64,000 nt of DNA, from contig OX597814.1 of assembly GCA_951406725.2 (NCBI GenBank), positions 11,408,001 through 11,472,000 of the forward strand, in the 5' to 3' direction. Source of the DNA: Octopus vulgaris. Its lineage: Eukaryota. Shown in pieces: positions 14,421-39,132 of this stretch (its first letter is position 1; every line of letters starts with the position of its first letter). The position numbers and the translations under genes were made by a program. The notes beneath the pieces are model-generated. The model was given only the letters and a program-made list of their open reading frames with translations, made no database searches and had not been told where the DNA came from.

Positions 14421-15445
14421 TGTTTCTTTATTAGCCACACAGGGCTGCACACAGATAGAACAAATTACAAGGTAGAGCTTTTCTTTTGGAAAAAAAAAAA
14501 AAAAAAAAAAAAAAAAAAAAGGAAGGGGGAGTTTCGATCAAAAGGGATCGTAAAAGGAGAGAAAGAGGACAAAAAAAAAGGGGGTTAAAAAAAAGGGGGA
14601 GAGGAAAAAAAAATTGATCAATAGGGATCGTTATCACAGAAATGTCAATATGAAGTGTAAAGGGGAGGACAGGTGAGGTTTACCCGTGGAAAGAAAAGCC
14701 TACGGAAAAGACCACGGTAACCTCGGTCAATGAAGTCACATTTTATATTTCTTTTTTTTTTTTTTTTTTTTTTTGCAAGTAAGCAACTCTCTGTTTTCGA
14801 TTTCTGGGTTCATAGGACTATGCTCAAGGTGGCTTCGTCATTCATACGTGCCATTCTTGCTACATTCACCCATCTTTTTTTAAAACATTCGCTAGACAAA
14901 ACTTGCCTCTCTACTCTCACTTTCCTTTTCAAGTGGTACTTGAAGAAGTTGATGAGAGATTGACCAGAGAGGAAAGTGTTTGTCTCCAATCCTTTCAGAC
15001 GCGTCCACCAGATACATTCTTTCGCCATAGCCACAAGGATGATGAAAATAGCTCTTCCTTCCCGTTTGAAGGAAGGAGGCGTGACAATATTGACGATAGA
15101 CTCAGCTGATAAACCGACTCGTCCCACACGTGACAGCAGTTGTTCGACATAAGCCCACAGGTCGGAAATTGTTGGACACTGAACGAGTGCGTGCAGAACG
15201 GTTTCGTCGCTCTGACCGCATCTCGGGCAGGTCGGCCCCGTGTTTCTCGAGCCGTGTCTGTAGAGCTTATCCCGAACGGGTAGCGCTTCTCGGTAGCACT
15301 GCCAGGCCAGGGATCTCTGGAAGTTGTCCATGGGCCCTGGCCCGAAAGTCGTCCTGAACAGGCGGGTCAGGTACTCCTCGTCGACGTCCAGGTTCGCCCC
15401 GAGCTCGTCGTCGTACCTCCCCTCCACTAAACCCCTATAGAATGC
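14421..15445 (-). mobile_element. 5'-truncated Tx1-like LINE copy A
   Basis: Encodes ORF2 C-terminus (AFYRGLVEG...CPRCGQSDETVLHALVQC...) highly similar to 32631-33270; 3' UTR ending AATAAAGAAAC; (GATA)n on both sides. Confidence 0.95.
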
Positions 15446-15739
15446 TAGATAGATAGATAGATAGATAGATAGATAGATAGATTGATAGATAGATAGATAG
15501 ATAGATAGATAGATAGATTGATAGATAGATAGATAGATAGATAGATAGATAGATTGATAGATAGATAGATAGATAGATAGATAGATAGATAGATAGATAG
15601 ATAGATAGATAGATAGATAGATAGATAGATAGATAGATAGATTGATAGATAGATAGATAGATAGATAGATAGATAGATAGATAGATAGATAGATAGATAG
15701 ATAGATAGATAGATAGATAGATAGATAGATAGATAGATA

Positions 15740-16800
15740 AGTTTCTTTATTGGCCACACAGGGCTGCACACAGATGGGACAAGTTACAAGGTAGAGCTTT
15801 TCTTTGGGGGACGAAAAAAAACAAAAAACAAAAGACAAAAGAAACAAAAAAAAGGTGGCGTAGGTTTTCGATCAAAAGGGATCGTAAAAGGGAAAAAAAG
15901 AACAAAGAATAACAAAAAAAAAATAAATAAAAAAAATAAAAAACGAAAAGGAACAAAAGAAAAGAGAAATGAAAAAAAGAAGAAAAAAGGGGAAAAAAAC
16001 GATCAATAGGGATCATGTATCACAGTGTAATGATGTATGGTGTAAAGGGGAAAGCAAGTAAGGTTTATCCGTGGGAAGAAAAGCCTACGAAAAAGACCAC
16101 CGTAACCTTGGTCAATATTGTTATATGTTACCACATTTGTTTGCAAGTGGGTAACCCTCTGTTTTCAATTTCTGGGTTCATAGGATTATGCTCAAGGTGG
16201 CTTCGTCATTCATACGTGCCATCCTTGCTACATTCACCCATCTTTTAAAACATTCGCTAGACAAAACTTGCCTCTCTACTCTCACTTTCCTTTTCAAGTG
16301 GTACTTGAAGAAGTTGATGAGAGATTGACCAGAGAGGAAAGTGTTTGTCTCCAATCCTTTCAGACGCGTCCACCAGATACATTCTTTCGCCATAGCCACA
16401 AGGATGATGAAAATAACTCTTCCTTCCCGTTTGAAGGAAGGAGGCGTGACAATATTGACGATAGACTCAGCTGATAAACCGACTCGTCCCACACGTGACA
16501 GCAGTCGTTCGACATAAGCCCATAGGTCGGAAATTGTTGGACACTGCACGAGTGCGTGCAGAACGGTTTCGTCGCTCTGCCCGCATCTCGGGCAGGTCGG
16601 CCCCGTGTTTCTCGAGCCGTGTCTGTAGAGCTTATCCCGAACGGGTAGCGCTTCTCGGTAGCACTGCCAGGCCAGGGATCTCTGGAAGTTGTCCATGGGC
16701 CCTGGCCCGAAAGTCGTCCCGAACAGGCGGGTCAAGTACTCCTCGTCGACCTCCAGGTTCGCCCCGAGCTCGTTGTCGTACCTCCCCTCCACTAATCCCC
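15740..16800 (-). mobile_element. 5'-truncated Tx1-like LINE copy B
   Basis: Same ORF2 C-terminus as copy A with a different 3' UTR; separated from copy A only by (GATA)n 15446-15739. Confidence 0.95.
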
Positions 16801-38029: not shown

Positions 38030-38389
38030 TTTCTAATGTCGAGAAGAAAATAACAGAAATGAAATGGGGTCGAAACTGCCCCTAGGGGCGAATTCCTCCC
38101 TTGGAAAAGCACTCAAATGAAAGTTGGTTGCCTTACACACCTTATTTGCAAAAATCTACACAAAAATTGGCCTATAAATAGTCAAAATAAATGATTACCT
38201 TCGGAGCTGAAACGACATCACATCCGTCAATAGATAGATAGATAGATAGATAGATAGATAGATAGATAGACAGATAGATAGATAGATAGCTAGATAGATA
38301 GATAGATAGATAGATAGATAGATAGATAGATAGATAGATAGATAGATAGATAGATAGATAGATAGATAGATAGATAGATAGATAGATAG

Positions 38390-39132
38390 TTAAGTTTCTT
38401 TATTGGCCACACAGGGCTGCACACAGATGGGACAAGTTACAAGGTAGAGCTTTTCTTTTGGGGGATGAAAAAACAAAAAACAAAAGAAAAAAAAGGGGGG
38501 ATGGCGTAGGTTTTCGATCAAGAGGGATCGTAAAAGGGAAGAAAAGAACAAAATAAATAAATAAATAAATAAAAAAAAAAATAAAAAATAAAAAGAATAA
38601 AAAAAGAAAAAGAAAAGGAACAAAAGAAAAGAGAAATGAAAAAGAAGAAAAAAGGGGGAAAAAAAGGGGAAGAGGAAAAAAAACGATCAATAGGGATCGT
38701 GTATCACAGTGTTATGATATATGGTGTAAAGGGGAAAGCAAGTAAGGTTTATCCGTGGGAAGAAAAGCCTACGAAAAAGACCACGGTAACCTTGGTCAAT
38801 ATTGTTATATGTTACCACATTTGTTTGCAAGTGGGTAACCCTCTGTTTTCAATTTCTGGGTTCATAGGATTATGCTCAAGGTGGCTTCGTCATTCATACG
38901 TGCCATCCTTGCTACATTCACCCATCTTTTTTTAAAACATTCGCTAGACAAAACTTGCCTCTCTACTCTCACTTTCCTTTTTAAGTGGTACTTGAAGAAG
39001 TTGATGAGAGGTTGACCAGAGAGGAAAGTGTTTGTCTCCAATCCTTTCAGACGCGTTCACCAGATACATTCTTTCGCCATAGCCACAAGGATGATGAAAA
39101 TAGCTCTTCCTTCCCGTTTGAAGGAAGGAGGC
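38390..39132 (-). mobile_element. 5'-truncated Tx1-like LINE copy D
   Basis: 3' UTR nearly identical to copy B; PPSFKREGRAIFIILVAMAKECIW; head-to-tail with the full-length copy across (GATA)n. Confidence 0.95.

Follow-up and report, generated by a model that had tools for sequence, protein, structure and literature searches.

A young L1-group LINE lineage of Octopus vulgaris in (GATA)n microsatellites, with a sister family at (TAA)n

The octopus genome carries a young LINE lineage, comprising subfamilies A, B, and C and numbering more than 8,000 copies, whose association with (GATA)n microsatellite arrays is far beyond chance, an observation that is real and well supported. We describe it starting from four copies in a 64,000-nt stretch of Octopus vulgaris DNA (the window, in which positions are counted from the first nucleotide) and following the lineage across the 2.80-Gb assembly (227 contigs), in which exact 3′ motifs number 7,963 of A/B type and 208 of C type. 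A and C share 82% identity in ORF2. All A-type 5′ ends that were scored (40/40) are 100% identical across 243 nt and the 1,149-aa frame is kept in many C copies, which, together with an empty site at one full-length copy described below, points to recent activity. Microsatellite-specific APE elements are already known; set against the excerpts of the papers cited here by PMC number, the GATA target and the GATA/TAA sister pair appear to be new.

The four copies in the window

The arrays, copies, and coding regions are as follows, with junctions below written in the sense orientation of the element and a slash between element and flank.

14209..14420, unstranded: (GATA)n array, 3′ flank of copy A
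14421..15445, minus strand: copy A, subfamily A, 5′-truncated, 1,025 nt
15446..15739, unstranded: (GATA)n array separating copies A and B
15740..16800, minus strand: copy B, subfamily B, 5′-truncated, 1,061 nt
16801..16872, unstranded: (GATA)n array, 5′ flank of copy B
32268..32337, unstranded: 3′ member of an exact 70-nt duplication around copy C, with two variant units
32338..38230, minus strand: copy C, subfamily C, full length, 5,893 nt
32631..36080, minus strand: ORF2 of copy C, 1,149 aa, with Pfam domains
35361..36080, minus strand: endonuclease domain of ORF2, structure model with pLDDT 95
36146..38029, minus strand: ORF1 of copy C, 627 aa
38231..38389, unstranded: (GATA)n array separating copies C and D
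38390..39132, minus strand: copy D, subfamily B type, 5′-truncated, 743 nt
39133..39179, unstranded: (GATA)n array, 5′ flank of copy D

The coordinates, strand, and flanks that the initial annotation had given for the four copies were confirmed: all four lie on the minus strand, (TATC)n stands on both sides in 4/4, and poly(A) is absent. The 3′ junctions read AAACA/TATC in copy A, AAACT/TATC in B, AAAGT/TATC in C, and AAACT/TAAC in D, and the 5′ flank ends in TCTA at copies A, B, and C and in CTAT at D, with a one-base ambiguity. Three 3′ UTR types were again distinguished (A and B are 85% identical, B and D 90%, and C 74 to 82% identical to the others, over alignable parts), and the proposal that the copies are independent insertions is supported. 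A full-length A copy of 6.06 kb elsewhere in the genome, with both ORF1 and ORF2 open, matches copy A at 97.6% identity. The truncation points of copies A and B lie ~10 nt apart (15440–15450 and 16790–16800) near an internal TTCTATA motif, and the same breakpoint recurs in 3 of 77 sampled copies, possibly marking a microhomology hot spot.

Copy C represents the complete LINE, with both ORFs, and encodes in ORF2 an APE endonuclease (PF03372, aa 23–211), a reverse transcriptase (RT; PF00078, aa 510–760), and a zf-RVT domain (PF13966, aa 981–1035). Its 3′ end lacks poly(A), and an AATAAA stops 4 nt short of the end. The structure model of the endonuclease has the L1 endonuclease as its closest solved fold (TM 0.82–0.84); residues D144, N146, D205, D229, and H230 are invariant, and a hairpin of nine residues lies between T192 and S202; the domain is intact and L1-like. 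In ORF1 a CCHC knuckle (CX2CX4HX4C) is visible at aa 337–352 as a weak match, its 18.6 bits falling short of the Pfam cut-off, 20.8. The 70 nt at 38231–38300 are identical to those at 32268–32337 on the other side of copy C and likely represent an unusually long target-site duplication.

Other repeats share the window. Frame fragments of LINE-like character occur at 92–562 (minus), 18840–19313 (minus, adjoining an (AAT)n array), 23142–23594 (plus), and 57040–58797 (minus), and a 1.8-kb (GAAA)n-rich array at 51128–52960 yields long spurious open frames. A SINE with a presumably tRNA-like head is present at ~3880–4300 (minus), 18045–18383, and 20390–20807 (plus). Its ~45-nt tail aligns with the 3′ ends of subfamilies A, B, and C and of family E (below), its copies form dimers, and they are mostly followed by GGTA or GGTG, not by TATC. 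The SINE may have been mobilized by a Tx1-like relative with a different target; no candidate partner of this kind was found.

Target preference and junctions across the genome

Insertion specific for (GATA)n in a single orientation, which the four copies had suggested, is supported by the flanks at both ends, whose tabulation the initial annotation had proposed. At the 3′ end, TATCTATC lies within 0–4 nt of 6,159 of the 7,963 exact-motif A/B ends, i.e., 77% of flanks carry it and a perfect TATCTATC is missing in ~23%. More than 20% of flanks are thus of one sequence type, the level that marks a target-specific family in the excerpted text of PMC4494074. In a sample taken in position order (the first 17 Mb of contig C1) the 3′ flank starts with TATC in 80/87 copies and with TAT in 84/87; a TCTCTC start was seen in 1/87, which is not the pattern of a (TC)n or (TTC)n target of the Kibi/Koshi type. 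The best 30 C-type copies, the window's copy C among them, have a TATC start in 29/30. The 5′ end was mapped in 77 sampled copies, and in 56 of them an array precedes it (at least three units within 45 nt); by comparison, at least three units occur in only 1.9% of random 59-nt windows. The 21 without a strict 5′ array are mostly variant arrays (TACC, TCCA, TACA), other arrays (TA/CT), or internal deletions, with few unique sites. The 5′ end falls in an array in 30/30 full-length C copies (including the window's copy C) and in 27/30 full-length A copies, the other A copies comprising one in a mixed array and two outside.

Abundance of the repeat does not account for this preference. Outside the elements, AT, AAAG, and ACAT repeats make up 2.55, 2.16, and 1.52% of the window, respectively, versus 0.97% for AGAT. 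Setting 3′ ends used against sites available in the window (counted in 54 kb of it only) gives 6,159/134 for TATCTATC, 36/166 and 88/65 for lone TATC, and, with usage taken from a motif 3 nt shorter, 82/1,488 for (TA)4 and 8/121 for TATTATTA; (TA)4 sites are 11 times as frequent in the window as TATCTATC, and TATTATTA sites about equally frequent. The rare use of lone TATC suggests that recognition likely covers two units or more.

The fixed junction phase that the initial annotation had read from the window holds at the 3′ end (8,067 TAT versus 173 non-T, counted with a slightly shorter 3′ motif than the 7,963 set) and fails at the 5′ end, where several phases and microhomology are found. Blunt 5′ junctions of truncated copies read CTAT in four cases, ATCT in three, TATC in one, and TCTA in none, and 18 other truncated copies overlap the array by 1–7 nt (one copy being counted twice in this table). 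Among full-length A copies the 5′ joints are ragged, and only full-length C copies show a fixed 5′ phase (TCTA in 29/30, TTTA in one); the fixed 5′ phase seen in the window is a small-sample effect. Of the 173 non-T junctions, 30 were examined; most of these are slippage variants, and their duplications do not exceed 7 nt.

The repeat is a target and not a tail, as had been proposed, since off-array copies carry 5- to 18-nt duplications that start with TAT(C) and add no repeat, and since one empty site was recovered; the GATA arrays likely predate the insertions. Among off-array copies chosen for a single 3′ TATC, 15/52 have a duplication that reaches non-repeat bases (permutation mean 0.4, maximum 2 in 200), and the other 37 have no informative duplication. 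The clear duplications span 7–18 nt and start at TATC. Two sites depart from this start. At L382, a full-length copy, TATTG lies on both sides without a TATC unit, and a joint that skips the whole element, marking the empty site, is present in 4/4 other sequencing runs from four studies; the 7–8 shared letters occur once in it, and in two of the four runs the shorter side of the joint still exceeds 30 letters. At L603, a 13- to 16-nt duplication starts with TATT. In both of these non-TATC sites, CA or ACA, the last bases of the element, stands directly before the duplication. In an unbiased set, informative duplications were found in 7/80 copies (at least one of them, L076, a chance match), for a null maximum of 4, and a two-unit test for an RNA tail gave informative sites in 3/19. 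Duplications within arrays are mostly short: in 27/39 copies with a pure 5′ array, the 3′ side deviates within the first 40 nt. Long ones occur at copy C (70 nt, exact), L233 (at least 66 nt), and L351 (32 nt); duplications of at least 25 nt as a class do not exceed the null (1/112 versus a mean of 0.56, not significant), so these stand as single cases only. The pattern is not that of a repeat-tailed LINE of the RTE/CR1 type, in which the element supplies the repeat and the repeat is found at the 3′ end only.

Relationships and the sister family at (TAA)n

The initial annotation's placement of the element among APE/RT elements of the L1/Tx1 group stands, with PF03372, PF00078, and an L1-endonuclease fold. 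The best PDB match of ORF2, human L1 ORF2p (aa 7–874, E 2.5e-58; R2, 1.6e-21), places it in the L1 group, in a comparison where few LINE clades are represented among solved structures. A separate ORF1 with a CCHC knuckle is a feature of the Tx1 clade; in the octopus ORF1 the match to such a knuckle is weak (above). The octopus architecture fits that clade, and membership is putative: homolog, representative, and cluster searches returned no named Tx1 reference, giving names only from Argonauta, Patella, Stylophora, Mytilus, a sea cucumber, and Cannabis, and among the homologs Tx1 appears as a label just once, in the similarity-based name of a Stylophora protein with 33% identity. Of the named relatives, proteins of Argonauta hians come closest (57 and 68% identity). 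A and C group together (SH-aLRT 99) in quick trees that have SH-aLRT support only and whose rows are mostly unnamed; in such trees a large unnamed ORF2 group (P0252–P0321), 43 to 54% identical across the RT, is sister to the octopod group. The limpet Patella caerulea has 11 related ORF2 proteins (P0077, P0239–P0248) whose near-consecutive locus tags (SNE40_003393–003415) suggest a clustered, target-specific relative. Metagenome relatives (80 loci) are mostly 24 to 37% identical, with one partial match at 42%; GATA was found in none and any simple repeat in 7/80, which at such distances is uninformative on the targets of close relatives.

A search of the same genome with a divergent relative recovered family E, a 5.9-kb APE sister family that targets (TAA)n. 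Its ORF2 is 71 to 72% and its endonuclease 67% identical to those of A and C. It has 185 exact 3′ motifs, (ATT)3 follows 29/30 ends, and the 3′ junction reads G/ATT; upstream, (ATT)n is present at three isolated full-length copies and 7/11 short ones. Older E-like places end at (ATT)n in 12/12. Family E was the top result when further families were sought with divergent queries, and the 12 lower-ranked places fetched were all of the E lineage. Full-length E copies also form head-to-tail arrays with a period of ~5,870 nt and joints of 5–6 ATT units (loci L431–L468):

G000:C50:5785-59128, family E array of ten copies
C47:8618-38393, family E array
C4:93799501-93835969, family E array

The endonuclease hairpins are nearly identical across C, A, and E (the variants being WTNRVGSSR, WSNRIGSSR, and WTNRIGSSR). 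Elsewhere in the domain, 53 positions are common to A and C and different in E, and aa 151–163 hold a cluster of these differences and a 3-residue insertion.

Several known elements resemble this pair. Dong belongs to the R4 clade and has a restriction-like endonuclease. It targets (TAA)n (PMC3812793), the same repeat as family E, which differs in being an APE element 71 to 72% identical to the GATA family; Dong-R4 is listed as active in Octopus vulgaris (PMC13282606). Kibi, at (TC)n, and Koshi, at (TTC)n, are Tx1-clade elements of teleost fish (PMC4494074, PMC3812793) and, like the octopus element, microsatellite-specific APE-type non-LTR elements; here the repeat is (GATA)n/(TATC)n, in an octopod host, and in its way of working the element resembles them. 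Crocodilian Tx1 families at (TTCC)n or (TTTC)n (PMC4494074) also have a tetranucleotide target, but one with a pure-pyrimidine strand, whereas TATC contains a purine and the nick proposed below would fall at a T^A or A^G step. Waldo, at (ACAY)n, and Mino, at (AC)n, are microsatellite-specific elements of the same APE type with di- or tetranucleotide repeats, of the R1 clade and with insect hosts and other repeats (PMC3812793). Xenopus Tx1L and human L1 share with the octopus element two ORFs, an APE-RT organization, short duplications, and 5′ truncation, but not the absence of poly(A) or the microsatellite target; the hairpin has nine residues as in L1, versus 11 in Tx1L (PMC1950540). In a 2026 annotation of Octopus vulgaris, 80 families are assigned to L1-Tx1 and 13 of these are rated recently active (PMC13282606); its excerpted text mentions neither GATA nor target sites. 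GATA is not named as a target in the excerpts of PMC4494074 and PMC3812793, and no GATA-specific Tx1 element was found in the literature excerpts, including those of PMC4640811, PMC4758252, and PMC7265360; Repbase and Dfam were outside this scope.

How the target may be chosen

The mechanism by which APE elements target microsatellites is described as "not well understood" (PMC3812793, excerpt). We consider it probable that in the octopus lineage the choice is led by the endonuclease and made in pre-existing (GATA)n arrays. The APE domain would nick the GATA strand of an existing array at a fixed step and so prime reverse transcription, the nick being 5′-GAT^AG-3′ or 5′-GATA^G-3′, which fit the sequence equally. 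Parsimony favors GAT^AG, since the G/ATT junction of family E implies AAT^AA, and thus a common T^A step, if the RNA is assumed to add nothing there. Recognition would span about two units or more, the second strand would be cut at a variable distance, usually 5–18 nt further on and occasionally 30–70 nt within arrays, and the 5′ end would be joined through 0–7 nt of microhomology. Pairing between the RNA 3′ end and the primer may help without setting the target, and the difference between GATA and TAA would lie in endonuclease surfaces outside the hairpin, e.g., aa 151–163. In favor of this reading are the flank counts at both ends, the duplications of off-array copies and the empty site at L382, the use of repeats set against their availability, the intact endonuclease, and the positions at which A and C differ jointly from E. 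Precedent comes from Tx1L, whose endonuclease alone nicks its own target in vitro (PMC1950540). Several observations count against endonuclease-led choice: the hairpin, which alters nicking specificity when grafted (PMC1950540), hardly differs between the GATA and TAA families; CA or ACA precedes the duplication at L382 and L603; 37 of the 52 off-array copies lack an informative duplication and 21 of the 77 sampled copies a strict 5′ array; and duplications of at least 25 nt are not significant as a class.

The near identity of the hairpins at different targets speaks instead for an RNA that sets the target, an alternative we regard as unlikely. Nicking at T^A steps in AT-rich repeats would be loose, and transcripts that run into the downstream array, as the AATAAA 4–6 nt from the end would allow, would carry read-through (UAUC)n that pairs with the nicked GATA primer, each lineage inheriting its own repeat. 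A T^A nick fits both the GATA and the TAA junctions, poly(A) is missing with AATAAA at the very end, and the fixed 3′ phase would also be expected from pairing between RNA and target. The end microhomology at L382 and L603 is a hint of RNA–primer pairing at two off-target sites. In the I factor, R1Bm, and R2Ol, an RNA 3′ end that base-pairs with the target is reportedly required or helpful, and it has been proposed that RTE elements change sites along with their 3′ repeats (PMC6007223). On the other hand, off-array copies with a clear duplication, from sets preselected for 0–2 units, show no extra 3′ TATC units; the 82 copies at (TA)4 and eight at TATTATTA are joined without an intervening TATC unit; and the endonuclease domains differ at one-third of positions. 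A further claim, that the sister lineages switched between GATA and TAA without a change of hairpin and that read-through RNA units remember the target, we hold to be doubtful; if true, an L1-group element would choose its target in a self-templated and reprogrammable way.

That the element itself makes the repeat as a 3′ tail, in the manner of RTE or CR1, and that earlier copies left their tails as the 5′ arrays is very improbable, and this reading is largely refuted. Copies do cluster head to tail, and in 2/77 (L132 and L144) the 3′ array is long and the 5′ DNA is unique and unexplained. However, the 5′ array is often not preceded by another element and passes gradually into other repeats, off-array copies are tailless with TATC duplicated, and many copies have a long 5′ array yet only one or two 3′ units. 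RTE-clade elements have microsatellite-like 3′ tails (PMC6007223) and share with the octopus element a repeat at the 3′ junction and possible RNA–primer pairing; unlike theirs, the octopus repeat flanks the element at both ends, derives from duplication of the target, and is missing off-array. Scarcely credible is loose insertion followed by purging outside GATA arrays or by later growth of arrays around copies, which could appeal to the ~23% of 3′ ends without a perfect TATCTATC but must contend with the youngest copies (those with identical 5′ ends) already lying inside long arrays, a fixed orientation and 3′ phase, more abundant repeats that are hardly used, and a sister family of opposite preference in the same genome.

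Whichever partner leads, at least one copy (L382) is polymorphic in the octopus, and thousands of its GATA microsatellite loci are broken by LINE copies, which may affect GATA-based markers and assembly. The GATA/TAA sister pair is a natural system for testing how LINEs choose their targets, offering very young intact elements, thousands of junctions, and informative off-target sites, and the question of whether protein or RNA determines the target bears on the engineering of site-specific LINE insertion.
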